Positions 43,155 through 63,686 of a stretch of 64,000 nt of DNA are shown here, one piece after another (within the stretch, counting starts at the first letter, position 1; each line of letters starts with the position of its first letter). This DNA comes from an uncultured Thermoleophilia bacterium. Its GTDB lineage: Bacteria; Actinomycetota; Thermoleophilia; Gaiellales; Gaiellaceae. A program made the translations under genes and the position numbers. Below the pieces are notes generated by a model that searched no databases, was not told the origin of the DNA, and worked only from the letters and a program-made list of their open reading frames with translations. Location: NCBI GenBank assembly GCA_963757255.1, contig CAVWQY010000004.1:172897-236896 (forward strand), written 5' to 3'.

Positions 43155-43217
43155 AGCGACCTCCTAAGCGGACTGAAGACTCCGGATACCGTACCGGAAA
43201 CGGAGTGGTCGCTCCGG

Positions 43218-44656: not shown

Positions 44657-44663
44657 GGGTGTT

Positions 44664-45737
<1,074 letters not shown>

Positions 45738-45745
45738 CTAGCCTC

Positions 45746-46556
45746 TTGCCGCTCGAGGCCCTGATTCTCGCTCTTGGGAGCGCGGTTCTCCACGCTGTGT
45801 GGAATCTCTTGCTCGGCCGGGCGAGGGACGTACAGGCCGCAACGGCCGCGACATTCCTCGTCTCGATGGCGATCGCGCTGCCGTTCGCGCTCGTCTGGTG
45901 GCACGCAGATCGATCCGTCTGGCCGTACGCGCTTGCGTCCACGCTCCTCGAGACGCTCTATCTCGTCGCGCTCGCGGCCGCCTACCATCGCGGTGAGATC
46001 TCGTTCGTCTACCCGCTCACGCGCGGGGTGGCGCCGGTGCTCGTGCTCGCCTTCACCGTGTTCTGGCTGGGGCACCACGCCTCCGCGGCCGAAGTGGCGG
46101 GCGTGCTCCTCGTCGCGTGCGGCGTCGTGCTCGTGCGCGGCCTCGGTGTGCGGGGTGACGCGGCCGCTCTCGTCTGGACCGCGACGATCGCGGCGACGAT
46201 CGCCGCCTACACGCTGGTCGATCGCGTGGGCATCCACCGCGCGGGCGCCATCACGTACTTCGTGTTGACCCTGGTCGGCCCCTGTCTGATCTCGCCCTGG
46301 CTCGCCGGCACGCGCGCGATCCGGCGCGAGCTCGGCTGGCCCGTCGCCGCCGGGGGGCTCGCGAGCTTCGGCTCGTTCACCTTCGGCCTGCTCGCGCTTC
46401 GCCACGGCAGCGCCGCCGCGGTGCTCGCCGTCCGCTCGTCCTCGGTCGTCGATCGCAACCGCGCTTGCGAGCCGGGTCCTCGCCGAGCGAGTCTCGTGGA
46501 CACGGCTGCTCGGGTCGGTGCTCGTCTTCGCAGGGATCGTGCTGCTCGCCGCCTGA
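45746..46556 (+). pseudogene. EamA/DMT-family transporter, frame broken by one extra base near 46451
   Basis: The frame of TTG 45746 is readable as far as ..AAAVLAVRSSSVV. The canonical C-terminus IATALASRVLAERVSWTRLLGSVLVFAGIVLLAA-stop is in the +1 frame. Junction gtc gtc [g] atc gca. Confidence 0.8.
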
Positions 46557-46582
46557 AACGGCCGTGGCCGAGAAGGCAAGTT

Positions 46583-46625
46583 GGACATGGATGTCCCTGG
46601 CGCTTCTCCATGGACATCCATGTCC
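46583..46625. repeat. twin 14-bp palindromes / 14-bp perfect inverted repeat between convergent genes
   Basis: GGACATGGATGTCC at 46583-96 and GGACATCCATGTCC at 46612-25. Each is self-complementary around a 2-nt centre, and the two are exact reverse complements of each other. Confidence 0.75.
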
Positions 46626-46649
46626 CGTCCGCGGTATCGGGACAGTGGT

Positions 46650-47216
46650 TCAGCCGTATCCGTACAGCCCGGGAAACCGCCGCGCCAGCAGCCCAACGAG
46701 CAGCGCCGCCGGCAGCCCCACGACGTTGAGGAAGTCGCCGTCGATGCGCTCGACCAGGCTCGCCCCGCGTCCCTGGATGGCGTAGGCGCCTGCGCGTCCC
46801 TCCCACTCGCCGGCGTCGACGTAGTGGTCGAGCTCGCGCCGGGCGAGCGGCCGGAACGTGACGAGCGTCGTCGCCGTGTGCAGCTCCTCCCACGCCGGCG
46901 TGCGGAGGCAGAGGCCCGAGACCACCTCGTGCGTGCGGCCGGCAAGGGTCTCGAGCATCGCGTGCGCCTCGCTGGCGTTCGTGGGCTTGCCGAGCAGCGC
47001 GCCGTCGAGCAGCACTTCGGTGTCGACTCCCAGCACGGCGCGCTCGCCGCCGTCGACCGACCGAGCCTTGCCGGCGGCGCGCTCGAGCGGATCGGTTCCG
47101 GGCGCCTCGTCGAAATCCGGCACGGCCACCTCGAACGGCACGCGGAGCTGCGTCAGGATCGCCCGCCGCTGAGGCGACGTCGAAGCGAGCACGAGCGGCG
47201 GCGGCGGGATGCTCAC
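46650..47216 (-). CDS. maf: Maf-family nucleoside triphosphate pyrophosphatase
   Basis: GTG 47216. LVLASTSPQRRAILTQL..GKP..GAYAIQG. There is no stop codon between it and the upstream methyltransferase frame. Confidence 0.88.
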   Translation of the reverse strand: MSIPPPPLVLASTSPQRRAILTQLRVPFEVAVPDFDEAPGTDPLERAAGKARSVDGGERAVLGVDTEVLLDGALLGKPTNASEAHAMLETLAGRTHEVVSGLCLRTPAWEELHTATTLVTFRPLARRELDHYVDAGEWEGRAGAYAIQGRGASLVERIDGDFLNVVGLPAALLVGLLARRFPGLYGYG

Positions 47217-48042
47217 TCCGGAACGCGCTTGGTGCCCAGGCTCATCTGCTCCCTTCTGCCCAGGCTCATCTGCGCGCTTACGTGCGACCCAGATCTCCTC
47301 ACACGGCCACTTGCGCGCCCATTCCGCCGTCACGTATGCGTAGTGCTCGTGCGTCTCGGCGTCGGGCGGTGCCTGGAGCTCGAGCAGCCGCTCGATCTCG
47401 AAGCCGTTCGCGCGCAGCAGGTCGATCCATTCTCCGTGCGGCAGGTGGAACTCCACGCCCCCCTCCGGCCACTCGAAGCGGCGCATGCCGAACTGGGGCA
47501 CCTGGAGGGTCTCCGACGCCGGGCCCTCGTCGGGCGTGCAGAGGATGACGAGTGTCGAGTTGCGCAGGAACACGAGCTGCCCTCCGGGGCGCAGGAGGCG
47601 GGCGGCCTCGGGGATCCACCGGTAGGGGTCGACCCAGATCGAGGCCCCGTACTCCGAGAGGACGAGGTCGGCCGAAGCATCCGGCAGGCCCGTCTCGGCG
47701 GCATCGGCCTCGCACGAGCGGGAACTCGATCCCGGTCTCGGCCATCTGGCGCCGGGCCGTGTCGAGCTGCGCGGTCGTGATGTCGACACCCACCGGTCGC
47801 GCACCCCGTTTCGCGAGCCACGCCGAGAAGTACGCGGTGCCACAGCCGAGCTCGACCACGTCGAGCCCGCGCACGTCGCCGAGGACGTTCAGCTCCGATT
47901 CGTCGATCGCCCAGATGCCCCAGTGGATCGTGTCGAGCGCCCAGTTGTCCGACGCGTGCTCGTCGGTGTACTCCTCGTTCGTGCGCGTCCAGAGCTCCGC
48001 GTTCCTCGCGGCGTCGCGCGCGGGTTGGTCAGGCGAGCCCAT
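47217..48042 (-). pseudogene. class I SAM-dependent methyltransferase, frame broken near 47712 and lacking its own stop (reads into maf)
   Basis: The N-terminal part from ATG 48042 (VVELGCGTAYFSAWLAKRGARPVGVDIT) ends at ..GIEFPLV. It continues in another frame as EADAAETGLPDASADLVLSEYGA..RPGGQLVF..EEIWVARKRA. Junction ctc gtg [c] gag gcc. Confidence 0.8.
47233..47273. repeat. 17-nt perfect direct repeat with 24-bp period at the methyltransferase-maf junction
   Basis: tgcccaggctcatctgc at 47233-49 and 47257-73. It encodes ADEPGQKG and ADEPGHQA in the open frame. Confidence 0.9.
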
Positions 48043-48445
48043 CGGGGAACCAGATCCCGATCTCGCGCTCGGCCGACTCGACCGAGTCGGAGCCGTGGAC
48101 GAGGTTGTTCGGCATCGCGAGCGCGAACGAGCCGCGCAGCGAGCCCGGGTCCGCGTCGGCCGGATTCGTCGCACCGATCGTCTTGCGGCAGGTCGCGATC
48201 GCGCCCTCTCCCTCGAGCACGAACGCAAGGGTCGGCCCCGACGTGATGAAGTCCACGAGCTCGCCGAAGAACGGCTTCTCTTTGTGCTCGGCGTAGTGCG
48301 TCTCACCGACCTCGCGGCTCGCGGTCACGAACCGGGCGGCGCGCAGCTTCAGCCCGCGGCGCTCGAAGCGCGCCAGGATCTCGCCGGCGAGGTTCCGCTC
48401 GACGGCATCCGGCTTCGCGAGGATCAGTGTGCGCTCGACGGCCAT
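48029..48445 (-). CDS. ndk: nucleoside diphosphate kinase
   Basis: [23 protein letters not shown]. Confidence 0.96.
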
Positions 48446-48458
48446 GCGGCCGCGCACG

Positions 48459-48977
48459 TTACCCGGAACGCTGGCGCCGCGGCGGGCGCTTGCGCTCGGT
48501 GAGGTTCACCGTGTCGTCGGCCTGGTCGATCGGCGTCTCGCAGTACGGGCAGACCTGCCACAGCGCCTCGAGCGGCCTGTGGCACGTCACGCACGAGTGC
48601 CGCAACTTCGTCGTGCAGACCGGGCAGATCAGGAAGTCCTCGTCGACCTCGGCGCGGCAGACCGGACAGTGCAGGTCGCGGCCGCCCAGGCGCCGCTCCA
48701 TCGCCTTGATCTCGAGCTCGCGCTCGCGCACGTCCTCCAGGTACTCGGGAGGCCGGAAGAGCATGTAGATGAGCGGCCCGATGAACGGCACGATGCCGAG
48801 CCCGGTCGAGACCCAGACGAGCAGCGGGTCCTCGATCCGGCGCCGCGCGTCCTTGTACACCCAGTAGATCGTGGCGACCCAGAACACCAGCACGAACAGG
48901 ACCACCATGTTGCGGATCACGTACCACGTGGAGGAGTGGAAGAAGTTGTGGACGCTGCCGAAGGCGGATGCGGTCAC
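48459..48977 (-). CDS. membrane protein with C-terminal double zinc-ribbon
   Basis: Two TM segments, then [28 protein letters not shown]. Confidence 0.65.
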
Positions 48978-49087
48978 AGGAGGATTCTTCCTATCCCGTA
49001 CCCCGCCGCAAACGCCAGGCCGACGAAGAGCGCCAGAATGACGAGGGCGAAGAGGAAGACACTGATTCGTTCACCAGGACGGGCCAT
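48974..49087 (-). CDS. 37-aa single-TM peptide
   Basis: [37 protein letters not shown]. 4-nt overlap with the downstream gene. Weak SD. Confidence 0.3.
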   Translation of the reverse strand: MARPGERISVFLFALVILALFVGLAFAAGYGIGRILL

Positions 49088-49098
49088 GGTATGCCCTT

Positions 49099-50208
49099 TC
49101 ACTCGTCGCCGGAGAGATCGGCCAGCAGGTACAGCGAGCCTGCGACGAGCAGCGCCCCGTCGGGCCCTGCCAGCTCGAGGCCGCGGAGGCGCGCGGCCAC
49201 GGGATCGGCAACCGACTCGACCCGCGCGAAATACGGCTTCGCGGCCGCCGCGAGCTCGGCGGCGGGAATCGCCCGCGAGCTCGAGGACTGCGTCGCGACG
49301 AGGGTGTCGGCGCGCTGCGCGAGCGCACGCAACATCGAGTCGACGTCCTTGTCGGCGAGGATCGAGGCAACCAGGGTGAACGACCGGTCGGGCAGGCGCG
49401 GGAGCAGCCAGCCGACACCGGCGAGGTTGTGGGCGCCGTCGCGAATCTCGAGCGGCCGCTCGCTGTACCGCTCCAGACGCCCCGGGAGCTGCTCGGCGCG
49501 TTGCGGAAGCACCGCGAGCGGCCGCTCGAGCAACGCCTCCGCGGCGGCGCTCGCGAGGGCGAGCGCGCTCCGGCCAGGATGGTCGACCCGGGCCGCGCCC
49601 TGGGCGCGGGCGAGATCGCCCCACTCCGGCTCGCCCGTGACGACGATCGCGCCCGGCCGCACGACGGCGAGCTTCTCGGCTGCGATCAGCTCACGGGTCG
49701 CTCCGAGTGCGTCCGTGTGGTCGAGTGCGACGTTCGTGAGCACGACCACCGGAGCGTCGACGACGTTGGTCGCGTCGTGACGGCCACCGAGCCCGGCTTC
49801 GACGGCCGCGACCTGGACGCCGCGTGCGGCGAAATCGGCGAACGCGGCCGCGGTGACCGCCTCGAACTGGGTCGCTCCGACCGCCTCGGCATCCGGCCGG
49901 ACGCGCGCGACTGCGCGCTCGAAGGCGTCGCGGTCGGTGTCGAGCCGCTCGTGCCAGCCGCTCACGTGCGGCGAGAGATATGAGGCTGTGCGCAGGCCCT
50001 CGGCGGCAAGCAGGCGCGCGATCGTGCGGGCCGTCGTCGACTTGCCGTTCGTGCCGACGACGTGGATCGACGTGAACGAGCGCTGCGGGTTGCCGAGCCG
50101 GTCGAGCAGCGCCGTGATCCGCTCGAGCCCGAAACCGTCGGCCGGCCACGGACTGAGCGACTCGAGCCAGTCGACTGCGGGAGATGCTCTACGCGTCGCC
50201 GATTGCAT
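49099..50208 (-). CDS. folC: dihydrofolate synthase / folylpolyglutamate synthase
   Basis: IHVVGTNGKSTTARTIA. Mur-ligase fold. Start assumed at MQSATRR, overlapping the valS end by 20 nt. Confidence 0.88.
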   Translation of the reverse strand: MQSATRRASPAVDWLESLSPWPADGFGLERITALLDRLGNPQRSFTSIHVVGTNGKSTTARTIARLLAAEGLRTASYLSPHVSGWHERLDTDRDAFERAVARVRPDAEAVGATQFEAVTAAAFADFAARGVQVAAVEAGLGGRHDATNVVDAPVVVLTNVALDHTDALGATRELIAAEKLAVVRPGAIVVTGEPEWGDLARAQGAARVDHPGRSALALASAAAEALLERPLAVLPQRAEQLPGRLERYSERPLEIRDGAHNLAGVGWLLPRLPDRSFTLVASILADKDVDSMLRALAQRADTLVATQSSSSRAIPAAELAAAAKPYFARVESVADPVAARLRGLELAGPDGALLVAGSLYLLADLSGDE

Positions 50209-52612
50209 CGAGCTCACGGCGGTAGCGCTCGAGCTTGTCGCGCTCGGCGGTAACCACCTCTGCAGGCGCGTTCTGGACGAACCGCTCGTTCGCGAGCGCA
50301 CGCTCGGCGCGCGCGATCTCCCCACGCAGCCGCTCTCGCTCGGCCGCCGCGTCGCCGTTGTCGCGCTGAGGCGCGCGGTCGGGCCTCACGACCGCGTCGA
50401 AGATGCGCTTCTCCTCACCGTCGAGCTGCGGCACGACGCCGGAGCGGCGGAACACCTGCGCGTACTCCTGCACGCGCTCGAGCGCCGACGCCTCCTGCGT
50501 GTCGCCGGCCTCGGGCCACGGCGCGACGATCAGGCGTGACGCCCGGTCGGGGAGGTGCGACCAGATCTCCTCCGTCACGTGCGGCATCACCGGGTGGAGC
50601 AGTTTCAGCAGCCGCTCGAGCGCGGCGGTCGCCGTGGTGCGTGCGTCGGCGTCGCCGTCGTAGAGCCGGCCCTTTACGGCCTCGAGATACCAGTCGCAGA
50701 AGTCGTCGAACGTCAGGTGGTACAGCTCGTCGGTCAGGTGCGCGAAGTCGAACTCGCCGATCAGCTGCTCCGCCGCGAGCTGGGCCTGCGAGAGCCGCGC
50801 GAGGATCCAGCGTTCCTCGAGTGACGACGGCTGCTCGCCGGGCCCCGCACCCTCGCAGGCAGCGATGATCAACCGGGCCGCGTTCCAGAGCTTGTTCGCG
50901 AGCTTGCGGCCCTCCTCGAGCGCCGAATCCGAGAAGCGCACGTCCTGCGTGAGCGAGTTCTTCATCAGCCCGTACCGCGTCGCATCGGTCCCGTGCTGGT
51001 TGATCAGCTCCAGCGGGTCGATGCCCGTCTTCAGCGACTTCGACATGCGCCGCCCGTCCCGCGCGAGCACCGTCGTGTGGATGACCACGTCCGTGAACGG
51101 AATGTCGCCCATCAGCTCGAGCCCGGAGAAGAGCATCCGGTTCTCCCAGAGGCGGATGATCTCGCGGGCCGTCGTCTGCAGGTTCCCGGGATAGAAGTAC
51201 GCGAGATCCGGTGTCTCGTCGGGCCAGCCGAGCGTCGCGAAGGGCCACAGCGCCGACGAGAACCATGTGTCGAGGACGTCGGTCTCTCGCGTCAACTCGG
51301 TCGAGCCGCACTCGGCGCACGCCGACGGCTCGCTCTCCTCCACGGTCAGATGCCCGTCCGGGCAATACCAGACCGGGATCTGGTGGCCCCACCAGATCTG
51401 TCGCGAGATGTTCCAGTCGGGAGCGTTCTCGAGCGAGTCGATCGCGAATCGATGCTGGCTCTCGGGGTGGAACACGACCCGCCGCTCGCGCAACGCCTGC
51501 AGCGCCGGCTGCTTGATCTCGTCCATCGCGCACCACCACTGCAGTGAGATCCGCGGCTCGATGCGCGTCTTGCACCGCTCGCACACGGCGACGCTGTGCC
51601 GGTAGTGCTCGCGCTTCTCGAGCTGGCCGCGTTCCTTCACCCAGGCGATGATCCGGTCCTCCGCCTCCTTCTGGGTCAGCCCTTCCAGGCCCTCCGCGGT
51701 GACGAGCCCGTCGGGCCCGATGCAGCTCGGCTCGGGGAGGCCGTGGTCGCGGCCGATCGCGAAGTCCTTCGGATCGTGGGCCGGGGTGATCTTCAGCGCG
51801 CCCGTGCCGAACTCGCGCTCGACGCGCTCGTCTGCGATGACGGGGACGCGCCGCTCGACCCACGGCACGATCACCTCGCGCCCGACCAGGTGCTTGTAGC
51901 GCTCGTCGTCGGGGTGAACTGCGACTGCGACGTCGGCGGGGATCGTCGCCGGACGGACGGTGGCGATCGCGATGTAGCCGTCGCCGTCCGCGAGTGGGTA
52001 GCGGATCGTCGAGAGCGTGTCGTCGACGTCCTGATGCTCCACCTCGAGATCCGAGAGCGCGGTCTCGTGGTAGGGGCACCAGTTGATGATGCGGTTCGCC
52101 CGGTAGATCCAGCCGCGGCGGTAGAGATGCACGAAGAAGCGCATCACTGCGCGGATGTAGCCCTCGTCCATCGTGAACCGCGTGCGGCGGTAGTCGAGCG
52201 AGGCTCCCATCCGGCGGAACTGGAACAGGATCTTGCCGCCGTACTCGTGCAGCCACTCCCACACCCGCTCCTCGAACGCCTCGCGGCCGAGCTCCTGGCG
52301 CGACGTCCCTTCGGCGAGGAGCACGTTCTCGACGACGTTCTGCGTCGAGATCCCGGCGTGGTCGTAGCCGGGCTGGAACAGCACGTTGAAGCCCTGCATC
52401 CGCTTCATGCGGATCACGGTGTCGCCGATCGCGAGCTGAAGCGCATGGCCCGTGTGCAGCTCACCGGTCACGTTCGGCGGCGGATGCGCGTCGACATACG
52501 GGGTGCGCGACGGGTCGGGATCGGCGTTGTAGAGGCCCTCGGCCTCCCACGTCTCCTGCCAGCGCTCCTCGACGCCGTGCGGGTCGTACCGCGGCTGCAG
52601 TTCGGTGCTCAT
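50189..52612 (-). CDS. valS: valine--tRNA ligase
   Basis: PPPNVTGELHTGHAL (HIGH) and RMSKSLKTG (KMSKS). C-terminal coiled coil. 807 aa, intact. Confidence 0.96.
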   Translation of the reverse strand: MSTELQPRYDPHGVEERWQETWEAEGLYNADPDPSRTPYVDAHPPPNVTGELHTGHALQLAIGDTVIRMKRMQGFNVLFQPGYDHAGISTQNVVENVLLAEGTSRQELGREAFEERVWEWLHEYGGKILFQFRRMGASLDYRRTRFTMDEGYIRAVMRFFVHLYRRGWIYRANRIINWCPYHETALSDLEVEHQDVDDTLSTIRYPLADGDGYIAIATVRPATIPADVAVAVHPDDERYKHLVGREVIVPWVERRVPVIADERVEREFGTGALKITPAHDPKDFAIGRDHGLPEPSCIGPDGLVTAEGLEGLTQKEAEDRIIAWVKERGQLEKREHYRHSVAVCERCKTRIEPRISLQWWCAMDEIKQPALQALRERRVVFHPESQHRFAIDSLENAPDWNISRQIWWGHQIPVWYCPDGHLTVEESEPSACAECGSTELTRETDVLDTWFSSALWPFATLGWPDETPDLAYFYPGNLQTTAREIIRLWENRMLFSGLELMGDIPFTDVVIHTTVLARDGRRMSKSLKTGIDPLELINQHGTDATRYGLMKNSLTQDVRFSDSALEEGRKLANKLWNAARLIIAACEGAGPGEQPSSLEERWILARLSQAQLAAEQLIGEFDFAHLTDELYHLTFDDFCDWYLEAVKGRLYDGDADARTTATAALERLLKLLHPVMPHVTEEIWSHLPDRASRLIVAPWPEAGDTQEASALERVQEYAQVFRRSGVVPQLDGEEKRIFDAVVRPDRAPQRDNGDAAAERERLRGEIARAERALANERFVQNAPAEVVTAERDKLERYRRELDAIGDA

Positions 52613-52753: not shown

Positions 52754-54435
52754 CTACCTCGCGACGGCGTAGCCCTGCATGGCGCGCGGGTTCGCCGCCG
52801 CAAGCAGCTGGTCGCCCTCGCGTTCGACCGCGCTCACGCGCCCGAGCGACCAGGCGGGCTGCACTGTCCACCTCGTGCCCACGGCGCCGCAGGTCGGCGA
52901 CCACGTCGTCGCCGAACCGCGACTCGATCGCGAGCGATCGCGGGGCGAAGTCGCGCGGGTAGAACGACGAGATCAGGTGGTCGGTGTGCCAATCGGGCGC
53001 GTCGATCGCCTCCTGCAGGTTCAGCCCCGGTCGACGTGCCGCACGAGGACGTGCAGCGCCCACTGCTCCTGCTGGTCGCCGCCCGGCGTGCCGTAGGCGA
53101 GCCACGGCTCGCCGTCGCGGAGCACGAGGCCGGGCGAAAGCGTCGTCCGCGGCCGCTTCCGCGGCGCCAGCGACGACGGGAGCCCTTCCTCGAGCCAGAA
53201 CATCTGCGCGCGCGTGCCGAGCGGCCAGCCGAGCGCCGGGATCGTCGGCGAGCTATGCAGCCAGCCGCCGCTCGGCGTCGCCGAGATCAGGTTGCCGAAC
53301 CGGTCGGCGACGTCGAGGTGCACCGTGTCTCCGCGCGTCGGCTCGCCGGCGCCGACCGACTGCGGGTCGGCGGCGGTGACGAGCGCCGGCAGCCGCCCGA
53401 TGCCCGGCCGGAGCTCTCCGTCGCGTCGTCACCGACGAGCAGGCGGCGTTCGTCCGCGTACTCGCGCGAGAGCAGCAGGTCGAGCGGGACGTCGCGCGTC
53501 GCCGTAGTTCGCGTCGCGGTCGGCGAACGCGAGCTTGGCGCACTCCGTCGTCGAGGTGGACGAGCTCGGCGTCGCCGAGCCCCGCCGACGTCGAATCCCT
53601 CGAGCAGCCGCAGCTGCTGCAGGCCGGCCGGCCCCTGCCCCCACGCGGCCGTCTTGCAGACGGTGAGCCCGCGATAGTCGACCGTCGCCGGCGGCTCCAG
53701 GGTCGCCCGCCACTCGCGCGAGGTCGTCGCCCGTGAGCAGGCCGCCGTTGCTCGCGCGAGAAGCGGTCGATCTCCTCCGCGACGAAGCCCTCGTAGTAGA
53801 CGCGCCGCGCGCGCTCGATCTCTGCCTCCCGCGATCCTCCGCGCGACTCGGCGAGGAGCCGCCGCCACGTCGCGGCGAGCTGCGGGTTGCGGAACGTCGA
53901 TCCCGGCCGCGGCGCGGGGAGATAGAGCTCCGCCGAGCCCGGCCACTCGCGGAGCAGAGGCTCCGATCGCTCGATCGTCAGCGTGATCCCCGGCACGACG
54001 GGGTAGCCGTGCTCGGCGTAGCCGATCGCGAACTCGAGCACGTCGACGAGCCGCCACGTCCCGAACTGCTCGAGCAGCAGCAGCCAGCCGCCGAACGAGC
54101 CGGGGACGCAGGCTGCGAGCAGGCCCGTGCCCGGCACGAGCGCGTGCCCGAGCGACGCGGTAGCGCTCGATCGTCGCCGCGGCGGGCGCGACGCCCTGGG
54201 CGCAGAGGACGAGCGGCTCGCCACGGTCGGCCGACCAGAAGACCGCGGGCAGGTCGCCGCCCGGCCCGTTCAGGTGCGGCTCGACGACCTGCAGGACGAA
54301 CCCCGCCGCGCAGGCGGCGTCGAAGGCGTTGCCGCCGCGCTCGAGCACCGCCATCCCGCCGGCGGACGCCAGCCAGTGGGTCGACGCGACGGCGCCGAAG
54401 GTGCCGCGCAGCTCCGGGCGGGTCGTGAAGCTCAT
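52754..54435 (-). pseudogene. ggt: gamma-glutamyltransferase, about nine frame disruptions as sequenced
   Basis: Segments in all three frames join into one stop-free protein of about 555 aa: [59 protein letters not shown]. Frame breaks near 54156, 53750, 53716, 53580, 53552, 53494, 53414-15, 53028-29 and 52865. Confidence 0.85.
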
Positions 54436-55475
54436 GCGGTCAACTCTGCCGCATCGATCGGGCTCGGCGCAGCCGCGCCGCGCTGCACGAGGTGGCAGGC
54501 GACTGAAGTGCCCGCCGCCGACGTCGATCGAGCGGAGGATCCACCTCGGTGCGAAGCGGGCGCCGACTCGTGCTCGAGCGGGCAGCGGGTGCGGAACCGG
54601 CAGCCTGACGGGGGAGCGAGCGGACTGGGAATGTCTCCCTCGAGCACGACGCGCCGTCGCTTCCGCTGCGCCTCGGGATCCGGCACGACGCGCTGCCGAG
54701 AGCAATGCCTGCGTGTACGGGATGCTTCGGGTCGCTGAAGAGCTCGCGCGTCGAGCGCCAGCTCGACGATCTTGCCGAGATACATCACCGCGACCCGGCC
54801 GCAGAGGTACTCGACCGTCGCGAGGTCGTGGGTGATGAAGAGGCACGAGAAGCCCATGTCGTGCTGGAGGTCGCGGAGGAGGTTGAGGATCGCCGCCTGC
54901 ACCGAGACGTCGAGCGCCGACACGGGCTCGTCCGCGACGAGCAGCGTCGGCGAGACCGAGAGCGCGCGAGCGAGGCCGACGCGCTGCCGCTGCCCACCGG
55001 AGAGCTCGTGCGGATAGCGGAACCGCAGCTCGGCGCGCAGGCCGACGCGGTCGAAGAGGTCGACGACCTTCTGGTCGAGGTGCTTGCCGCGCGCGAGCTT
55101 CTGCACGCGCAACGGCTCGCCGACGATCTGGCCGCAGGTCATGCGCGGGTTGAGCGACGAGTACGGATCCTGGAACACCATGTGCATGTCGCTGCGCAGC
55201 GGGCGGAGCTCCCGACGCGAGAGATGCGTGATGTCGTTGCCTTCGAGCCGGATCGCCCCGTCCGTCGGCTCGAGCAGGCGCATGACGCAGTTCGCGACCG
55301 TGCTCTTGCCGCTGCCGGATTCGCCGACGAGTCCGAGCAGCTCGCCCGGCGCGATCGAGAAGCGAGACACCGTCGACAGCGTGCACGACCCCGCCTCCGC
55401 CGCGGAACTGCCCGCCGGCGTGGAAGTGCTTGACGAGGTCCACGACCTCGAGCGTCGGTGTCTCGGGGGGCTCAT
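54432..55475 (-). pseudogene. Dpp/Opp-type ABC ATPase (DppF/OppF-like), about eight frame disruptions
   Basis: The ATG overlaps the upstream TGA. Walker [10 protein letters not shown], signature LSGGQRQRV, Walker B LLVADEP, then [10 protein letters not shown] and GGGHFVACHL in shifted frames. Breaks near 55465-70 (C-run), 55362, 54755, 54718, 54690, 54554, 54529 and 54504. Confidence 0.8.
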
Positions 55476-56461
55476 CGGCCGTCCACGCGCCACCGGGGTG
55501 GAAGCAGGCGACGAGGTGGTCGCGGCACGCACCTCGCGCAGCTCGGCGGACCTCGCGTGCGGCTGAGCTCGTCGGCGCTTGGGCAGCGCGGCGCGAAGGC
55601 GCAGGCGGTCGGCAGCTCGGCGAGCGACGGCACGCGGCCGGGGATCTCCTGCAACCGTCCCTGCGAGTCGGCGCCTCCGGGCCGCGGGACCGCGCCGAGC
55701 AGACCGATCGTGTACGGATGCTGCGGCGCGGCGAAGAGCTCGTGCACCGGCGCCTCCTCCGACCTTGCGGCCGGCGTACATCACGAGCACGTCGGTCGGC
55801 GATGTCGGCGACCACGCCGAGGTTGTGCGTGATCAGGACGATCGCGGTGCCGAGCCGCTCGCGAATGTCGCGCAGCAGGTCGAGGATCCCGGCCTGGATC
55901 GTCACGTCGAGCGCAGTCGTCGGCTCGTCGGCGATCAGGATCTTCGGATCGCACGCCAGGGCCATCGCGATCATCACGCGCTGGCGCATCCCGCCCGAGA
56001 GCTGGTGCGGGTACTCGTCGACCCGGCGCTCGGGCGCGGGGATGCGCACGAGGTCGAGCAGCTCGATCGTGCGTCGCCGAGCGTCCGCCCGCCCGAGGCC
56101 GAGATGCCGCTCGAGCACCTCGCCGATCTGGTTGCCGACGCGGAACGCCGGGTTCAGCGAGGTCATCGGCTCCTGGAAGACGAACGCGATCTCGCGGCCG
56201 CGGATCGCGCCGCACTGCCGCGAGCGAAGCGGTGAGCAGATCGACGCCGTCGAACTCGGCGCTGCCGGTCACATTCGCGGTCGAAGGAAGCAGGCGGAGA
56301 AGCGACATGACAGCTGACGCTCTTCCCACAGCCGGACTCGCCGACGACGCCGAGCACCTCGGCGCTCGTCGAGCGTGAACGAGAGGTTGTCGACCGCATG
56401 AACGTGACCGTCGTCGGTGTCGAAGCGCACCGACAGCTCGTCGAACGTCGAGGAGGCTCAT
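55472..56461 (-). pseudogene. Dpp/Opp-type ABC ATPase (DppD/OppD-like), at least seven frame disruptions
   Basis: [86 protein letters not shown] and DHLVACFHP are spread over three frames. Breaks near 56443, 56361, 56312, 56203, 55791 and 55760, with one or more between 55480 and 55570. Confidence 0.8.
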
Positions 56462-57345
56462 ACGCGTCGTCCGCGGGTCGAGGACGTCGCGCAAGCCCGT
56501 CGCCGAGCAGGTTGAACGACAGCGAGCAGAGGAAGATCGCGACCCCGGGATACAGCGCCAGCCGCGGCGCCTGTGAGAGATACGACTGAGCATCGGCGAG
56601 CATCACGCCCCACGAGGGCGTCGGCGGCTGGACGCCGAGTCCGAGGAACGAGAGCACGGCCTCGCCGATGATCGCTGCCGGGATCGTCACCGTCGCCTGC
56701 ACGATCAGCGTCGAGAGTCATGTTCGGAAGGATGTGACGGCTGATGATCGCTACGTCGCTCGCGCCGTTGGCGATCGCCGCGCGGACGTAGTCCTCCTCG
56801 CGCAGCGCGAAGGTCTCACCCCGCGCGACCCTGATCAGGCCGGGGGCTGCGCCGATGCCGAGCGCGATGGTGGCGTTCTTGAGCGACGGGCCGAGGATCG
56901 CCGCGAGCCCCACCGCGATGATCAGGAACGGAAACGCGAGCAAGACGTCTGTCAGCCGCGCGACCACGGTGTCGACCCAGCCGCGGTAGTACCCCGCGAC
57001 GAGGCCGATCGGCACCGCGATCACCATCGCGAGCATCGTCGCGAGGACACCCGCCATGATCGACGCGCGCGATCCCCAGATGATGCGCGAGAACACGTCG
57101 CGGCCGAGCTCGTCCGTCCCGAGGAGGTGACCATTCGTGAACGGAGGTGCAAGCGTGGCGTTGAAATCCGTCGCGGACGCCGAATACGGAGCGACCCACG
57201 GCGCGAAGATCGCAGCCCCGACGAACAGCAGCGCGACGACGAGCCCGGCGACTGCGAGCGGCCGCCGCAGGAAGCGCTTCCGCAGAAGCCGCCGTCGTCG
57301 TGCGCGGGGATTGATCGGAACGGTGGCGACGTCGACCGCGCTCAT
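56458..57345 (-). pseudogene. Dpp/Opp-type ABC permease (DppC-like), three frame disruptions in the last 260 nt
   Basis: Intact from ATG 57345 as far as ..ISRHILPNM. Then LSTLIVQATVTIPAAIIGEAVLSFLGLG..LLGDGL, RDVLD and RGRRV-stop are each in the next frame. Breaks near 56718, 56492 and 56476. Confidence 0.8.
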
Positions 57346-58292
57346 GCCGACCCCGAGACGCGGATGCGGGGATTGAGCAGCGAGTACGCAACGTCGACGA
57401 GCAGGTTGACGACGACGTAGCCGGCCGCGACCACGAGCACCACGCCTTGCAGCAACGCGTAGTCGCGCTGGTTGACGGCGTCGATCGTCAGCCGTCCGAA
57501 TCCCGGGATGACGAAGATCTGCTCGGTGATCACCGCGCCGGAGATCAGCGCGCCGAGCTGCAGGCCGACGACCGTCGTGACCGTGATCAGGCTGTTCCGC
57601 ACGGCGTGCTTGCCGATGACGGACCGTTCCGGCAGTCCCTTCGCGCGGGCGGTGCGCACGTAGTCGGTGCCGAGCGACTCGAGCATCGACGAGCGCATCT
57701 GCCGCATCAGCACCGCCGAGAGCCCGGTACCGAGCACGATCGCCGGCATCAGCATGTGCTCGAGATTCTGGATCGGACTGTGCACGAACGGCACGTATCC
57801 ACCTGCGGGAAGCCAGTGCAGCGTGACGGCGAAGTAGATGATCATCACGATCCCGAGCCAGAAGTGCGGCACGGAAAGACCGACGAGCGCACCTGTGGTC
57901 GCCGCGTAGTCGGAAGCCTTGCCGTGGCGAACCGCAGCGAGGATGCCCGCGCCGACGCCGATCACCGTCCCGATCAGCACGGCGAGGAAGGCGAGCTCCA
58001 GCGTGATCGGGAGCCTCTGGGCGATCGTCCGGGCGACCGAGAGCTGACGCTGGTCGGTCCCGAGGTCGCCCCGCACGGCGAGGCTGACCCAGTGGACGTA
58101 CTGCACCGGCCAGGGCCGGTCGAGCATGTACTTGTGCCTGATCGCCGCGAGCACCGCCGGGTCGCGGTTCTCGGCTCCCAGCGCGATCGCCGGGTCGCCG
58201 GGGATCGCCCGGACGCCCGCGAACACGAGCATGCTGGACAGGAGGAGAACGATCAGGGCGGCCCCGACCTTGCGCAGGAGGAAGCCGCCCAT
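57342..58292 (-). CDS. Dpp/Opp-type ABC permease (DppB-like)
   Basis: 316 aa, intact. MGGFLLRKVGAALIVLLLS, YVRTARAKGLPERSVIGKHAVRNSL, NPRIR. Confidence 0.9.
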   Translation of the reverse strand: MGGFLLRKVGAALIVLLLSSMLVFAGVRAIPGDPAIALGAENRDPAVLAAIRHKYMLDRPWPVQYVHWVSLAVRGDLGTDQRQLSVARTIAQRLPITLELAFLAVLIGTVIGVGAGILAAVRHGKASDYAATTGALVGLSVPHFWLGIVMIIYFAVTLHWLPAGGYVPFVHSPIQNLEHMLMPAIVLGTGLSAVLMRQMRSSMLESLGTDYVRTARAKGLPERSVIGKHAVRNSLITVTTVVGLQLGALISGAVITEQIFVIPGFGRLTIDAVNQRDYALLQGVVLVVAAGYVVVNLLVDVAYSLLNPRIRVSGSA

Positions 58293-58313
58293 GATCGATT
58301 CGACTCGCTGTCG

Positions 58314-59910
58314 CTACTTCGTGAAGCCGGCGAACGCCACGCGGGGGAGGCCGTCGCCGAACAACTGGACGCCGGACACGTTCGTCGCCTCGCCGTCGTA
58401 GTTGACCGGGTGGTAGAGGTAGATGACTGGACGGTCCTTGGCGGCCTGCGCGAGCGCGGCGTGGAAGTCCACGAGACGCGCGACCGTCGAGGCGGCCTTG
58501 CGCTCGTTGCCGAGCGCCCGGTCCAGCGACGGGGTTGCTGTAGCCGCTGTCGTTCTGCGAGCCGGACGTGGCCAGGAAGTTGAAGGTGTTCCCGTCGGGG
58601 TCGACACGGCCCGACCATCCGATCGCGAACGTCTCGAACTGGCCTGCGTCCTCATGGTTCAGGGACGTTACGAACTCCGTCGGGTCGAGGACGACGTTGA
58701 ACCCGATCGGCTTCTCCATCGACTGGATCACCTGGCCGAGCCGCGCGGCGACCGGATCGGTCCCGAGCATCAGGTGGACGGTCACACCCGGGGACGCCCC
58801 GGACCGCTTGAACGCCGCGGTGGCACCGGCGACGTCGGCCGTCAGCTTGCACGGGATTCCCTTGGTCGCGGGGTACCACGGCGTCCCCGGCGCGATCGGG
58901 AAGCAGTCCGGGTTGACCGTGCCCCCGAAGACGACGGTGTCGATCACCTTGCGATCGAGGGCGAGCTCGAACGCCTCGCGCAGGTCGGCGGACTTCGAGA
59001 TCGGCGTCCCGGTGCTGGTGTACGGCAGCTTCCCAAGGCCCCTCGAGTTGCCGATGTTGACCGTGATGCCCTGGTAGCCGATCGACGTCGCATGGAAGAG
59101 GCGCAGCGACTTGTCGGCGGCGATCGACTTGAGATCCGTGGAGGCCAGGCCCTCGGCCACGTTGACGTCGTGCGCGCGGAGGTTCGCTGCACGCGCAGAC
59201 GGATCGGTGATCACCTTCCAGACGATCGAGGCCAGGTGGACCTTTGCCTTGTCGTAGTAGTACGGCGACTTCACGAGTGTGATGTGGTCGCCCGCCGACC
59301 GGTCCTTGAACATGAACGGGCCGACGCACACGGGATTCGTCGCGAACTTGTCACCGAGTGCGTTCAGCGCCTTCGGCGACATGATCATCCCGGAACGGTC
59401 GGCCAGCTGGGCCGTGATCGGCGAGTAGCGGGCGTTGAGATGCAGGATCACCGTCGAACTGCCCTGCGTGTCGATCGACGTGACCGGTGAGAGCTCGCTC
59501 GCCCGCGCCGATCCCGGGAGCGTCTGGTCGCGAACGAGCGACTGCTTCACGGCAGCCGCGTTCAACGGCGTCCCGTCGTTGAACTTGAGGCCCGTGCGAA
59601 TCTTGATCGTGACCGTCTTCTTGTCGGCGGAGAACGTCGGAAGCGACGCCGCCAGTTGCGGCACGATCTCGAGCTTGCTGTTCAGGTCGTAGAGCTTCTC
59701 GCACATGTCGGCGAAGACCATCCGGCCGACGAACGAGCGGGCAAGTGTCGGGTCGAGCGCGTCCGGATCTGACTCGAGCGCGATCGTGAGGGTGCCCCCG
59801 TTCTTCAACGCGGGAGGCGCTGCCGAACGGGCCGAAGCCGTGAGCGCGGCGAGCGCGACGGCACCCAGGATCGTCAGCGTGATCGCAACGCGGGCGTGTG
59901 CTGTGCTCAT
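58314..59910 (-). pseudogene. family-5 ABC substrate-binding protein (DppA/GsiB-like), one frame disruption near 58530
   Basis: Signal peptide, then 460 codons in one frame as far as ..SGYSNP. The last 71 codons (SLDRALGNERKAAS..VAFAGFTK) are in the next frame. Junction aac ccc [g] tcg ctg. Confidence 0.85.
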
Positions 59911-59987
59911 GTCGTTCCCCCTGGTCGGTGGCTGCACGACTTTGTACGCGGAAACTCGTATTCGCGGATCTTGGCGAGGAGGCTACG

Positions 59988-60018
59988 TTGGATCCAAGTT
60001 GCTGTCAACTGGATCCAA
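59988..60018. promoter_or_regulatory. candidate operator: TTGGATCCAA - GTTGctgtCAAC - TGGATCCAA
   Basis: Perfect 10-bp palindrome at 59988-97. Near-copy at 60010-18, 22 bp centre to centre. A GTTG/CAAC dyad lies between them. Located in the divergent dpp / tauE-gntR intergenic region. Confidence 0.45.
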
Positions 60019-60041
60019 AACGCTGCTAGGCTCCCGGCTGT

Positions 60042-60452
60042 ATGAGCGAGCACGCGTCCGCGGCAAGCGGCCCGGCCGCGGGAGAACGCCGCGCCGGCCT
60101 CGACGCGCGGTTGCTCGCGATCGGCGTGCTGGGCGGCGTCCTCTCCGGCCTCCTCGGGGTCGGCGGCGGGGTCGTGATGGTGCCGCTGCTCGTGCTCTGG
60201 GCCGGGTACCAGCAGCGAGACGCGCACGCGCTCTCGCTCGGCGCGATCATCCCGATCAGCCTCGCCAGTGTCCTGATCTTCGGAGCCGCGGGGAAGGTGC
60301 GCCTTGCCGACGCGGCGGCGCTCGCAGCCGGCGCGATCGTCGGGGCGCAGATCGGGGCCTCCGCGCTCGCGCGCATCCGGGAACGGCCGTTGAAGCTCAT
60401 CTTCGGCCTCTTTCTCGGCGCAGTCTCGATCCTCTTGCTGGTGCGCCAGTGA
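60042..60452 (+). CDS. TauE/SafE-family anion exporter, half-size (N-terminal-type half)
   Basis: 136 aa. LSGLLGVGGGVVMVPLLVL. Its stop overlaps the next GTG (GTGA). Confidence 0.75.
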   Translation: MSEHASAASGPAAGERRAGLDARLLAIGVLGGVLSGLLGVGGGVVMVPLLVLWAGYQQRDAHALSLGAIIPISLASVLIFGAAGKVRLADAAALAAGAIVGAQIGASALARIRERPLKLIFGLFLGAVSILLLVRQ

Positions 60453-60826
60453 CGGGCGTCGTCTTGCTCGCCGCCCTCGTCGCGTTCGGGGTGTTCACCG
60501 GCGCGGGGGCGGGGCTGCTGGGCGTCGGCGGCGGGATCATGATGGTGCCGTTCCTCACCCTGGCGGCGGGCCTGCCGCAACATGCTGCCGAGGCCACGTC
60601 GCTGCTCGTCGTCCTCCCCACCGCCATCGTCGCCAGCATCGTCCTGCATCGCCGCGGCATCGGGAACCTGCCGCTCGCCCTGCGCTTCGGCGTGCTCGGG
60701 GCCACCGGCGGCGTCCTCGGCGCACTGCTCGCGCTCGCGCTGCCGGCGCACCTGCTCCGGCTCGTCTTCGCGCTCTTCCTGGGCGCGGTTGCGGTCCGAC
60801 TCGTCCGCGACGCTCTCGTGCAATGA
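60449..60826 (+). CDS. TauE/SafE-family anion exporter, half-size (second half)
   Basis: 125 aa. GAGLLGVGGGIMMVPFLTL. Its stop overlaps the next ATG (ATGA). Confidence 0.7.
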   Translation: MTGVVLLAALVAFGVFTGAGAGLLGVGGGIMMVPFLTLAAGLPQHAAEATSLLVVLPTAIVASIVLHRRGIGNLPLALRFGVLGATGGVLGALLALALPAHLLRLVFALFLGAVAVRLVRDALVQ

Positions 60827-61527
60827 CGAGCGTCGCCGACCCCAGCCTCGTCGACCGCCTGGCGGCGACGATCCACGCGCGCGTGCTCAGCGGGGAGATC
60901 CCGAGCGGCACGCGCCTGCGCCAGGAGACCCTGGCGTCCGAGTTCGGTGTCAGCCGGACACCGGTCCGCGAGGCGCTCCGCAAGCTCGAGTCGAGCGGGC
61001 TCGTGCTCGTCGAGCCGAATCGTGGCGCCGTCGTCCGCGGGCCTACCGCCCGCGATATCCGCGAGGCGTATGCGGTCCGGGCAGAGCTCGAGGGGTTCGC
61101 GGCCGAGAGTGCGGTCTCTCGCATCCTGGACAGCCAGCTCGATTCGCTCCGCCTGGCGGAGCAGCTCTTTCGCCACTCAGTCGAAGGAGTGATCCACGAC
61201 CGCCGGCGCGGGGTCGACAGCGACTGGTCGACCGAGAGCGACTGGGAGCGGGCGAACGACCTCTTTCACCGCGTGATCCAGGAAGCGGCGGGCAACCGCC
61301 AGCTCCTCGCCGCGATCTCGCACCTCCACCAGAGCTTCCCGCGTCACGTCACGTGGGCCGCGCTGAGCCACAGCTCGCACCTGCTCGAGCTGAACATCGA
61401 GCAGCACCGCCGCATCCTCGAGGCGATCGAGTCGCGCGACACGGCCGGAGCGCGCCGCCAGATGGGCGACCATGTTCGCTCGGCGGGCGAGCTCGTGGCC
61501 GAGTTGCTCGACCGCAGCGCGACCTAG
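60823..61527 (+). CDS. GntR-family (FadR/FCD subfamily) transcriptional regulator
   Basis: [40 protein letters not shown] plus a helical FCD domain. Confidence 0.9.
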   Translation: MTSVADPSLVDRLAATIHARVLSGEIPSGTRLRQETLASEFGVSRTPVREALRKLESSGLVLVEPNRGAVVRGPTARDIREAYAVRAELEGFAAESAVSRILDSQLDSLRLAEQLFRHSVEGVIHDRRRGVDSDWSTESDWERANDLFHRVIQEAAGNRQLLAAISHLHQSFPRHVTWAALSHSSHLLELNIEQHRRILEAIESRDTAGARRQMGDHVRSAGELVAELLDRSAT

Positions 61528-61530
61528 AGG

Positions 61531-62244
61531 CTACTTCGCGCGTGCGAAGTCGCCTGCGACGTGCGCGAGGATCGACTGCAGCAGCTCGAACGAGTGCATG
61601 ACGTGCTCGTGCGCGAGCACCCGCGCGCCCCCGACCGAGCCGGCCGCGAGCGCCTGGCGAATGGCGCGATGCTCGGCCTGGTTGCGCTCGTACAACAGGT
61701 CGAGCTCCTCGTCGAGCGGCGCCCACACCGTGGTGCCGGCAAAGCTCCGGCGGGCCCCCTTCGCAACCGCTTCGATGTACGGCACGTCGGCGGTGCGGTA
61801 GAGCACGTCGTGGAACGCGTGGTTCGCGCTCATCCAGTTCGCCATCAGCGAGCGTCGGTCGCCGCCCGGCTCGCGCGAGCGCACCTCCTTGGTCAGCCGC
61901 GCAAATCGCTTCTCGCACTCCTCGAGCTCCCTGAGCGCCTCGGTGGTCAGCTTCTGCGCGGCGAGCTCGGTGACGAGCGCCTCGAGCTCCGCGCGCACCA
62001 GGAAGGCCTCCCGCAGCTCTTCGCGTGAGACGTCACGGACGCGCACCCCGCGATTCGGCACGAACGAGACGAGGCCGAGCGCGGCGAGACGGCGCAGAGC
62101 CTCCCGCACCGGCGTCCGCGAGACGCCGAACCGCTCCGACAGCTGCTCCTGGCGCAGCACGGCGCCCGGCTCGATCTCACCGGAGACAATCGCCTCCTCG
62201 ATCAGGACGGCGATGTCGTCGGCCTTCGTGCTCTCGAGGCTCAC
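61531..62244 (-). CDS. GntR-family (FCD subfamily) transcriptional regulator
   Basis: GTG start overlaps the aceB stop (GTGA). [40 protein letters not shown]. Confidence 0.88.
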
Positions 62245-63686
62245 GGAAGGTGAGCGTACGCCGTCGTCGTCAGGAAGTCCTTGAACGGCGTCGAGAGCGC
62301 GACGTCGGCGAAGATCTCCTTCGCCTCGTCGGCGGCGTCGACCTGAGCGATCTCTTCGCGCACCCGCGCCTCGTCGAACCGCCCGGCCTGCACCCACGAC
62401 CACACCTGTGCGCGGGAGATCTCCGCAGTGGCTGCGTCCTCCATCAGGTTGTCGATCGCCGCGGCGCCGACCCCCTGCAGCCAGGCATCGAGGTAGCGCA
62501 CGCCGACGCTGACGTTCACGCGCAGCCCTTCGTCCGTCACCTCGCCGCCGGGGATGTCGAAGTTCAGCAGGTCGTCCTCCGTGATCGAGACGTCGTCGCG
62601 CTTCCGGTCGACCTGGTTCGGGCGGTCTCCGAGCACGTCGTCGAACGCGGTGAGAGCGACGGGGACGAGGTCAGGATGCGCGACCCAGGTGCCGTCGAAC
62701 CCGTTGCGCGCCTCCCGTTCCTTGTCCTCTCGCACCTTCGTCAGGGCGATCTCGTTGACGGCCGCGTCGCGCCGCGACGGGATGAACGCCGCCATCCCGC
62801 CGATCGCATGCGCCTCGCGCGCATGGCAGGTCTGCACGAGCAGCTCCGTGTACGAGTGCATGAACGGCACCGTCATCGTCACCTGCGCGCGGTCCGGCAG
62901 CACGGCGCCCATCTTCTTGATGCAGCTGAAGATGTAGTCCCAGCGTCCGGCGTTCAGCGCGCACGAGTGGTCGCGCAGCTCGAAGAGGATCGCGTCCATC
63001 TCGAACGCCGCCAGGATCGTCTCGATCAGCACCGTGCACTTGATCGAGCCGTCCGGCAGCCCGAGCTCCTCCTCCGCCAGTGCGAAGGCCTCGGCCCACA
63101 AGCGTGCCTCGAGATGCGACTCGAGCTTCGGGAGGTAGAAGTACGGCCCGGTCCCGCGCTCGAGCTGCTCGCGCGCGTTGTGGTAGACGACGAGCCCGAA
63201 GTCGAACAGCGAGCCGCTCACGGGAGACCCGTCGACCTCGTGATGCCGTTCGAGCAGATGCCAGCCGCGGGGGCGGATCACGAGCGTCGCGGTCTCGTCG
63301 TTCAGGCGATAGCTCTTCTCGCCGGTTTCGAGCTCGATCGTCCGGCGTACTGCGTCGTGCACGTTGCGCTGCCCTTCGACGACGTTCTCCCAGCTGGGTG
63401 AGTTGGCGTCCTCGAAGTCGGCCATGAAGACTCTCGCGCCCGAGTTCAGCGCGTTGATCATCATCTTGCGGTCGACGGGCCCCGTGATCTCGACGCGGCG
63501 GTCCTGCAGGTCGGCGGGCGCCGGCGCGACGGTGAAGTCGGCCGGCGCGCGCACGAACTGCGGGCGCTTCCCCCTGCGCTCGTCACGTGCAGCGAGCAGC
63601 CGCTCGCGCTCGGGATTCAGCTCGCGGTGCAGCCGATCGACGAACGCGAGCGCCTCGCGCGACAGGACTTCCTCGGCTACGCGAAT
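62241..63686 (-). CDS. aceB: malate synthase A, 5' end unresolved
   Basis: [74 protein letters not shown]. No ATG, GTG or TTG was found between the aceA stop and the conserved [12 protein letters not shown]. Confidence 0.9.

Follow-up and report, generated by a model that had tools for sequence, protein, structure and literature searches.

Clustered frame breaks in a Gaiellaceae dpp-ggt operon as a probable consensus artefact of two merged haplotypes

Extent and gene content of the frame-broken tract

The dpp-ggt operon of an uncultured Gaiellaceae genome raises the question of whether its four neighbouring frame-broken genes record a biological event or a fault of the deposited sequence. We analysed a 64,000-nucleotide stretch of this genome, hereafter the window. 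ORF listing is uninformative here because long spurious ORFs occur in all frames at 70% GC, and it was replaced by a GC3 frame plot, a codon-usage HMM and protein-guided alignment. The last of these used our own protein-to-DNA dynamic programming with frameshift states, queried with the intact proteins of a related species (L011) and then with intact conspecific proteins (L082). The minus-strand GC3 plot switches frame repeatedly from ~52.8 to 56.7 kb and is constant on either side.

Alignment to the L082 proteins finds 26 frameshifts (22 of +1, two of +2 and two of −1) and no stop codons in 52866–56716, and both query sets agree on their distribution over dppC (2), dppD (8), dppF (7) and ggt (9). 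The frameshifts lie at 56715, 56498, 56440, 56361, 56312, 56206, 55794, 55763, 55545, 55522, 55362, 54755, 54721, 54690, 54551, 54529, 54507, 54156, 53750, 53716, 53583, 53552, 53494, 53423, 53028 and 52865. The first-pass annotation of this DNA had listed about 25 to 30 breaks across the end of dppC, dppD, dppF and ggt, almost all of them one extra base, and had proposed a frameshift-aware alignment with homologs as the check. That alignment bears out both points, with positions within a few nucleotides of those listed, and the genes are not collinear in single frames. For one break, previously read as a 2-nt GA duplication at 53414–15, the better alignment is a 1-nt deletion around 53424–29, with an identical effect on the frame. 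In the same protein-guided alignment with L082 queries, dppB, folC and valS contain no frameshifts, the last being clean as had been claimed.

Table 1. Features of the dpp-ggt region and single-base insertions elsewhere in the window.
Feature	Coordinates	Strand	Remarks
uvrA-breaking +1 insertion	3924		sporadic; within a small patch dense in SNPs (2–4 kb, 20 mismatches)
+1 insertion	46451		sporadic; G allele in six JGI conspecific contigs, C allele in L172
+1 insertion in a methyltransferase gene	47711..47712		L172 C, L082 G, window CG (pairwise alignments)
valS	50189..52612	-	807 aa; single frame; clean downstream flank
Probable mixed-haplotype consensus tract	52866..56716		pairwise alignments to contig_13871 (L172) and L082
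ggt, gamma-glutamyltranspeptidase	52757..54438	-	557 aa repaired; 7 × +1 and 2 × −1 frameshifts, 0 stops
dppF-like ABC ATPase	54435..55476	-	345 aa; 7 × +1 frameshifts; Pfam ABC_tran and oligo_HPY in the conspecific gene
dppD-like ABC ATPase	55474..56461	-	326 aa; 6 × +1 and 2 × +2 frameshifts
dppC-like permease	56462..57345	-	294 aa; two +1 frameshifts in the last 260 nt (56715/6, 56498)
dppB-like permease	57342..58292	-	316 aa; single frame; 99% identical to the conspecific protein; clean upstream flank
dppA-like substrate-binding protein	58309..59943	-	531 aa in conspecifics; one isolated +1 insertion at 58525–58533

Compared at the DNA level with the nearest conspecific contig (contig_13871, below), the tract carries 28 insertion events peculiar to the window, of which 26 add 1 nt and two add 2 nt, together with four one-nucleotide deletions and about 140 substitutions. 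Three further +1 insertions in ggt (53359–53374) together make an in-frame +3, one extra base falls at 56461 in the overlap of the dppC stop and the dppD start, and the junction of the dppD 3′ end and dppF start (55466–55551) carries more complex indels (+2, +2, −1, −1). DNA alignments to eight related species and the conspecific contigs place the single-base insertions, which comprise all four bases, mostly outside homopolymers, with A, C, G or T set between unlike bases at most sites. The 1,520 repaired codons are free of stops, and the tract has no deletion longer than 1 nt; every repaired frame is open and the motifs are intact. The tract ends are sharp: outside 52.5–57.0 kb the mismatches drop to 0–4 per 500 nt. 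No mobile element or flanking repeat was found at them, the only repeat being the expected dppD/dppF paralogy, and the GC content of the tract (0.69–0.75) is inside the range of the window.

Once the extra bases are removed there is nothing unusual about the locus, which has the same gene content as an operon of a Dpp/Opp peptide ABC transporter with gamma-glutamyltranspeptidase. Precomputed Pfam matches, which come from the intact conspecific genes, comprise SBP_bac_5, two BPD_transp_1, two ABC_tran with oligo_HPY, and G_glu_transpept (PF01019, in ggt). The repaired window proteins are 92–99% identical to the conspecific ones (DppD 92%, GGT 95%), and the dpp-ggt gene order is kept across Gaiellaceae.

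Open repaired frames with intact motifs would also be seen if the four proteins were restored in decoding, by programmed ribosomal frameshifting or by transcript-level deletion editing. This would need 26 recoding sites, and the shift sites have no common sequence context. None of the sites is conserved, and the orthologues in eight species and four conspecific contigs read in a single frame. We know of no bacterial deletion-editing system, and we give decoding next to no probability.

Conspecific copies and a probable second haplotype

The closest sequence to the window is contig_13871 of ENA ERZ25039552 (L172; 853 kb, with a Flye-style name), which is 99.76–99.80% identical to it over about 58 kb. 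Intact dppB, dppC, dppD, dppF and ggt are found on this contig, on a 24-kb JGI contig (L082), on L173 (NCBI GCA_025450795.1) and on L171, the sole exception among these four being one +1 in ggt of contig_13871. Although it represents the same strain, contig_13871 has none of the lesions of the window, and the inheritance of lesions by relatives that would mark a pseudogene is thus not seen. The comparison with the orthologous locus in sister genomes that had been suggested earlier gives the same result on a wider scale: among 173 fetched related or conspecific loci, no exact 17-mer match exists for any of the 28 extra-base versions in the window.

Substitutions are concentrated in the same tract. 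Relative to the nearest strain they reach about 3.5%, with 11–24 mismatches per 500 nt. The 10 kb flanking each end have 0–4 in the same length, and the rest of the window does not exceed 10 per kb. The tract has dS 0.113 and dN 0.022 (dN/dS 0.20), with a flank dS of 0.011. Of the 105 substitutions unique to the window, 70 (67%) fall on third codon positions, and 99 of the alleles (94%) recur in other, more distant Gaiellaceae. The repaired ORFs had been described as pristine, which holds for the lack of internal stops and fails for substitutions; the argument against decay from an absence of substitutions falls with it, as they are ten-fold enriched in the tract.

Random read errors would predict a dN/dS near 1 and allele sharing at chance level. 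To judge from the distributions above, the substitutions are natural, synonymous-biased variation, neither decay nor random error. The low dN/dS and the alleles common to other Gaiellaceae argue that the tract contains a second real haplotype, and the population probably includes a version of this segment that is about 4% divergent. The second template may come from a strain of the same species or from a closely related population. In the 90% GGT cluster, which has 13 members, no independent intact copy of this haplotype was found; the closest member matches at no more than 534 of 555 positions. A DppF scan of metagenome contigs, in a collection that does not hold the conspecific JGI series, returned distant relatives (best 83%).

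Both alleles at the inserted sites

The inserted bases follow the same variation. Of the 24 insertions that could be tested, 21 yield an allele seen in relatives when the adjacent base is deleted in place of the "inserted" one, compared with 6.7 ± 2.2 (maximum 14) in 2000 simulations of random insertions; the remaining three do not match this pattern. At 54690, 54156 and 46451, which are C/G SNPs among conspecifics, the window carries both bases, and each of its two possible one-base deletions matches a different conspecific contig (exact 16-mer). On this comparison of alleles, the insertions sit at allelic sites and hold both alleles side by side. In the literature, we found no description of such tandem both-allele retention as a +1 insertion.

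Errors clustered in a read-sized 3.9 kb with sharp ends, together with sporadic indels in the rest of the assembly, are also what a low-coverage or unpolished stretch would leave if it came from a single noisy long read, or from a few, through random errors in a single haplotype. The dN/dS of the tract, its third-position bias and its known alleles are unlike random errors, as is the excess of insertions at allelic sites. Nanopore errors favour deletions and homopolymers, whereas the tract is insertion-biased and its indels lie mostly outside homopolymers. Additionally, a difference of ~4% with five times as many substitutions as indels is unlike a raw-read error profile. We regard this explanation as improbable.

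The extra bases do stand in the deposited sequence, and since the second haplotype is not seen elsewhere, no intact copy of it contradicts a real and very recent pseudogenisation, in which the strain would carry that haplotype with ~26 insertions from a localised, insertion-biased process silencing dpp-ggt. This corresponds to the fallback reading of the first-pass annotation, and it finds no support in the intact same-strain operon on contig_13871 or in the both-allele insertions. Reductive pseudogene decay, as in Mycobacterium leprae, brings stops, deletions, relaxed dN/dS and lesions common to sister genomes. The dpp-ggt tract resembles such decay in that several neighbouring genes are each broken many times, and it differs in having no stops, a dN/dS of 0.20 and lesions unique to one assembly; relaxed selection, with premature stops, deletions and dN/dS approaching 1, is not seen. 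With 26 independent frameshifts, and yet no stop, no deletion longer than 1 nt and no relaxation of dN/dS, all events would need to be extremely recent. Moreover, the inserted base is the population's alternative allele at exactly that site, and we know of no mutational process that inserts this allele there. Identical +1 lesions in uvrA, panB and dppA of the same assembly also argue against the pseudogenisation reading, which we consider very improbable.

These lesions belong to a sparse set outside the tract. Five or six had been noted earlier; in the ~54 kb compared with contig_13871 we find six insertions (3924, 13887, 46451, 47233, 47711 and 58525), and a seventh, at ~240 in panB, was read directly. 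All seven are +1 insertions, and uvrA is intact (950 aa) on contig_13871. Per base, insertions are ~66-fold fewer outside the 3.85-kb tract (6) than inside it (28). Going by their form and placement, these sporadic lesions are of the same kind as the extra bases of the tract, and the error mode is assembly-wide, with a density that tracks local SNP density.

A merged two-haplotype consensus as the probable origin

We put at about 90% the probability that the tract is a collapsed-haplotype consensus artefact of strain-oblivious long-read metagenome assembly and not a biological feature. The localised sequencing or assembly-quality problem that had been offered as the simplest explanation is supported by lesions unique to the window, intact conspecific genes and both alleles at the insertions, and its cause can be specified further as the probable merging of two haplotypes into one consensus. 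The reads would have held two versions of the dppC(3′)-dppD-dppF-ggt segment, the common conspecific haplotype (haplotype A, on contig_13871, L082, L173 and L171) and one ~4% different (haplotype X), which presumably co-occurred in one read set. As the co-occurring genomes would be nearly identical elsewhere, the assembler would have collapsed both into one contig. At differing sites the consensus or polishing step would mostly have taken the haplotype X base, which would account for the ~105 substitutions seen only in the window; at roughly one differing site in five both alleles would have been retained in tandem, adding one base and breaking the frame, and at occasional sites neither would have been retained.

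Under an indel-dominated model of read error, the maximum-likelihood consensus would favour keeping both bases, because charging every read one cheap deletion is less costly than charging half of them a substitution. We infer that such a preference would explain the +1 bias. The naming of the sister contig and the related Nanopore MAGs suggest that error-prone long reads were put together by a strain-oblivious assembler. Many related MAGs are from Nanopore reads, assembled in Flye with a single Medaka round (PMC12313526), and Flye is reported to merge strains that are ~98.7% identical into a single consensus (PMC8302730).

The tract shares with collapsed-haplotype consensus errors the presence of two diverged versions in one contig, a mosaic consensus and coding damage exactly at the differences. 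The publications consulted describe haplotype switching and unrepaired indels, and the tract differs from these in its tandem both-allele +1 at about one SNP site in five and in its restriction to 3.85 kb of divergent sequence within a pair that is otherwise near-clonal. Homopolymer indels in Nanopore MAGs likewise give frameshifted, seemingly truncated genes in long-read-only assemblies (PMC9262707); unlike these, the tract inserts all four bases, mostly outside homopolymers, at allelic sites.

The same divergent patch with both alleles at some sites might instead arise in the cell, if ~3.9 kb had been imported by recombination from a ~4% divergent lineage and aberrant mismatch processing of the heteroduplex had fixed the bases of both strands side by side at roughly one in five mismatches. 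This would amount to an insertion-biased, recombination-coupled mutational process that instantly silences a peptide-uptake/GGT operon, and we find it barely credible.

If the merged consensus is the origin, the tract has no biological significance, and the organism most probably has an intact, ordinary and functional peptide-uptake/GGT operon. In practice the locus would be a clean case of collapsed strain variation making a false multi-gene "pseudogene tract", with four adjacent genes broken two to nine times each, and such tracts would skew pseudogene counts, metabolic reconstructions and completeness estimates. Their signature, +1 insertions with both alleles of a local SNP within a patch of raised synonymous divergence, needs nothing beyond sequence comparison to be recognised and could serve to flag affected regions.

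Two other ideas were considered and rejected. Cross-mapping of reads from a paralogous ABC operon is disfavoured by inference, as the second version is collinear and ~4% divergent, compared with an in-window paralogy of ~70%. A gene-specific sweep of haplotype A among strains does not fit the divergence between L172 and L082, which is 2–3% in the tract and in the flanks alike. L173 has many flank differences, which are due to a distinct folC segment with 18% divergence.

Frame disruption in the dpp-ggt operon and its conspecific copies

The minus-strand dppA-B-C-D-F-ggt operon, followed by valS and folC, lies in a window of about 70% GC, and a GC3 frame plot shows its coding frame switching every 25–400 nt from about 52.8 to 56.7 kb (positions 52866–56716, the tract) and holding steady on either side. 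The best matches of the dppB-like permease were MAGs of Gaiellaceae and Thermoleophilia, many of them long-read. Frameshifts were counted with a purpose-written protein-to-DNA aligner with explicit frameshift states. Intact proteins of a related species (L011) revealed 26 frameshifts and no stops, and intact proteins of a conspecific contig (L082) gave the same 26 (two in dppC, eight in dppD, seven in dppF and nine in ggt; 22 of +1, two of +2 and two of −1), with none in dppB, valS or folC. The frame-breaking indels of the first-pass annotation are thus confirmed, at positions within a few nucleotides of those it listed. When the window was aligned by MAFFT to eight related species, its window-only single bases were of all four kinds and sat mostly between unlike neighbours in an otherwise conserved context. 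More complex indels (+2, +2, −1 and −1 in 90 nt) occur at 55466–55551, at the dppD 3′ end and dppF start, where length also varies between species; this stretch partly accounts for the low identity, only 92%, of repaired DppD to its conspecific counterpart.

Conspecific JGI contigs were reached through an exact match to the window's NDK protein. The 24-kb L082 shares about 97% identity with the window and encodes intact DppB (316 aa), DppC (294), DppD (326), DppF (345), GGT (557) and ValS (807). The 90% cluster of its GGT led to two further contigs, contig_13871 of ENA ERZ25039552 (853 kb; loci L172, L174 and L176) and an NCBI contig of GCA_025450795.1 (L173). By sequence, contig_13871 is effectively the same strain as the window, with 99.76–99.80% identity over 1344–39085 and only 0–4 mismatches per 500 nt over 42754–52500 and 57000–63348. 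Against it, the tract shows 28 insertion events, four one-nucleotide deletions and 11–24 mismatches per 500 nt, with sharp boundaries at both 52866 and 56716. The operon of contig_13871 is intact save for one +1 error of its own at L172:9622 (window ~53707), which leaves ggt as two products of 333 aa and 189 aa. A DZR-domain gene (window 48460–48802), uncalled there, bears three more errors of this contig, all indels; neither these nor the ggt indel occur in the window or in L082.

Genes of the conserved operon and +1 insertions outside the tract (window coordinates)
Feature	Position	Strand	Remark
dppA	59943–58309	−	conserved operon
dppB	58292–57342	−	conserved operon
dppC	57345–56462	−	conserved operon
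dppD	56461–55474	−	conserved operon
dppF	55476–54435	−	conserved operon
ggt	54438–52757	−	conserved operon
+1 insertion	~240		breaks panB
+1 insertion	3924		breaks uvrA
+1 insertion	13887		breaks 280-aa hypothetical gene
+1 insertion	46451		end of EamA gene
+1 insertion	47233		Maf/methyltransferase region
+1 insertion	47711		breaks methyltransferase
+1 insertion	58525		breaks dppA

Allelic content of the tract

For each isolated insertion, a neighbouring base was deleted in place of the extra one and the result compared with the allele in relatives at that column. A match was obtained at 21 of 24 insertions, against 6.7 ± 2.2 (maximum 14) for random insertions into the same sequence (2000 simulations). 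At 54690 and 54156, conspecifics carry a C/G SNP and the window holds both bases in tandem; by exact 16-mer look-ups, one window deletion reproduces L172/L173 and the other L082/L171. At about ten more tract sites, one deletion gives hap A, the common conspecific haplotype (contig_13871, L082, L173 and the conspecific locus L171), and the other a different Gaiellaceae species. The window versions with the extra base are absent from all 173 fetched loci.

The repaired reading frames, earlier described as pristine, are not: relative to the four conspecific contigs the tract has 105 private substitutions, compared with one in the 3.6-kb downstream flank and four in the 1.7-kb upstream flank. Seventy of the 105 fall at third codon positions, and 99 of the private alleles also turn up in one or more of five less closely related Gaiellaceae, each of which has 52–82 of them. 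Nei-Gojobori counting gave a dS of 0.113 and a dN of 0.022 for the tract (flank dS, 0.011). The resulting dN/dS of 0.20 speaks against random read errors, which would give a ratio near 1, and against pseudogene decay, which would likewise raise it. Codon position, shared alleles and dN/dS together indicate that a second, real haplotype (hap X), evolved under purifying selection, is present in the tract.

Hap X is about 4–5% from every conspecific copy found, and a search among the GGT 90% cluster members found no independent intact copy of it, so that on sequence comparison alone a real hap X pseudogene keeps some probability. Such a pseudogene is nevertheless very unlikely, since the inserted bases match the alternative allele of the population, the substitutions show no relaxed selection, and lesions of the same kind break uvrA and panB in this assembly. 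These points also tell against a real, localised mutational tract, the fallback of the first-pass annotation.

A probable merged consensus of two templates

The simplest account is that two templates, hap A and hap X, were merged into one consensus; where the two differ, it would mostly have taken a single allele, at roughly a fifth of the sites both, and rarely neither. The second template may belong to a conspecific strain or to a sister population very close to the species. Such merging would explain the +1 bias, the non-homopolymer contexts and the lack of stops, the confinement to the one segment where two otherwise near-clonal genomes differ, and the like nature of the rare lesions elsewhere, that at 3924 also lying in a small SNP-rich patch. 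We infer that the +1 bias likely stems from an indel-rich read-error model, in which a both-base consensus would cost one cheap deletion per read and a single-allele consensus a substitution in half of the reads. The literature supports the general phenomenon of strain collapse in assembly: strains at about 98.7% identity were collapsed by Flye (PMC8302730), and many related MAGs derive from Nanopore reads assembled with Flye and one Medaka round (PMC12313526). We found no description there of this exact tandem insertion of both alleles. On the evidence of assembled sequence, the tract is almost certainly an artefact of assembly, produced by the collapse of strain variation, rather than a biological mutation tract; the both-allele insertions and the intact contig_13871 operon thereby support, and make more specific, the sequencing or assembly-quality problem originally favoured. 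The tract is useful as a quality-control example.

Lesions and strain variation outside the tract

Outside the tract, a codon-usage HMM incorporating stop-codon logic picked out no more than a handful of frame changes within genes. Alignment of about 54 kb to contig_13871 yielded six window-only insertions, and a seventh, in panB, was read directly; all are +1, and wherever contig_13871 or L082 covers the genes hit, they are intact there. With its 28 events in 3.85 kb the tract is about 66 times denser, in keeping with the far lower density elsewhere reported by the initial reading. At 46451 both one-base deletions likewise match conspecific alleles (exact 16-mers), and at 47711 pairwise alignments show C in L172, G in L082 and CG in the window. 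A second, smaller patch of divergence from contig_13871 at 2000–3999 (uvrA; 20 mismatches in 2 kb versus 0–3 per kb nearby) holds the +1 at 3924 and thereby hints that the same mechanism acted here at a smaller scale.

Other differences among the conspecific copies were also seen. Over 49000–50000 (the folC 3′ part), the divergence of L173 from the window, L172 and L082 is about 18%, and from 50 kb onward its divergence from L172 is only 0.2–2%; by its sequence, this segment looks to have been replaced or recombined among strains. In the short methyltransferase-Maf gap (47207–47233), the window lacks 23 nt (TAAGCGCGCGGATGAGCCCAGGC) of L082 and has three extra nucleotides (CCG), and contig_13871 matches the window bar one base. 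At 60085–60820 on the plus strand, a TauE/SafE-type exporter is present as two adjoining half-size genes with a stop between them, a split that is probably genuine because contig_13871 has the identical arrangement (136-aa and 125-aa products).
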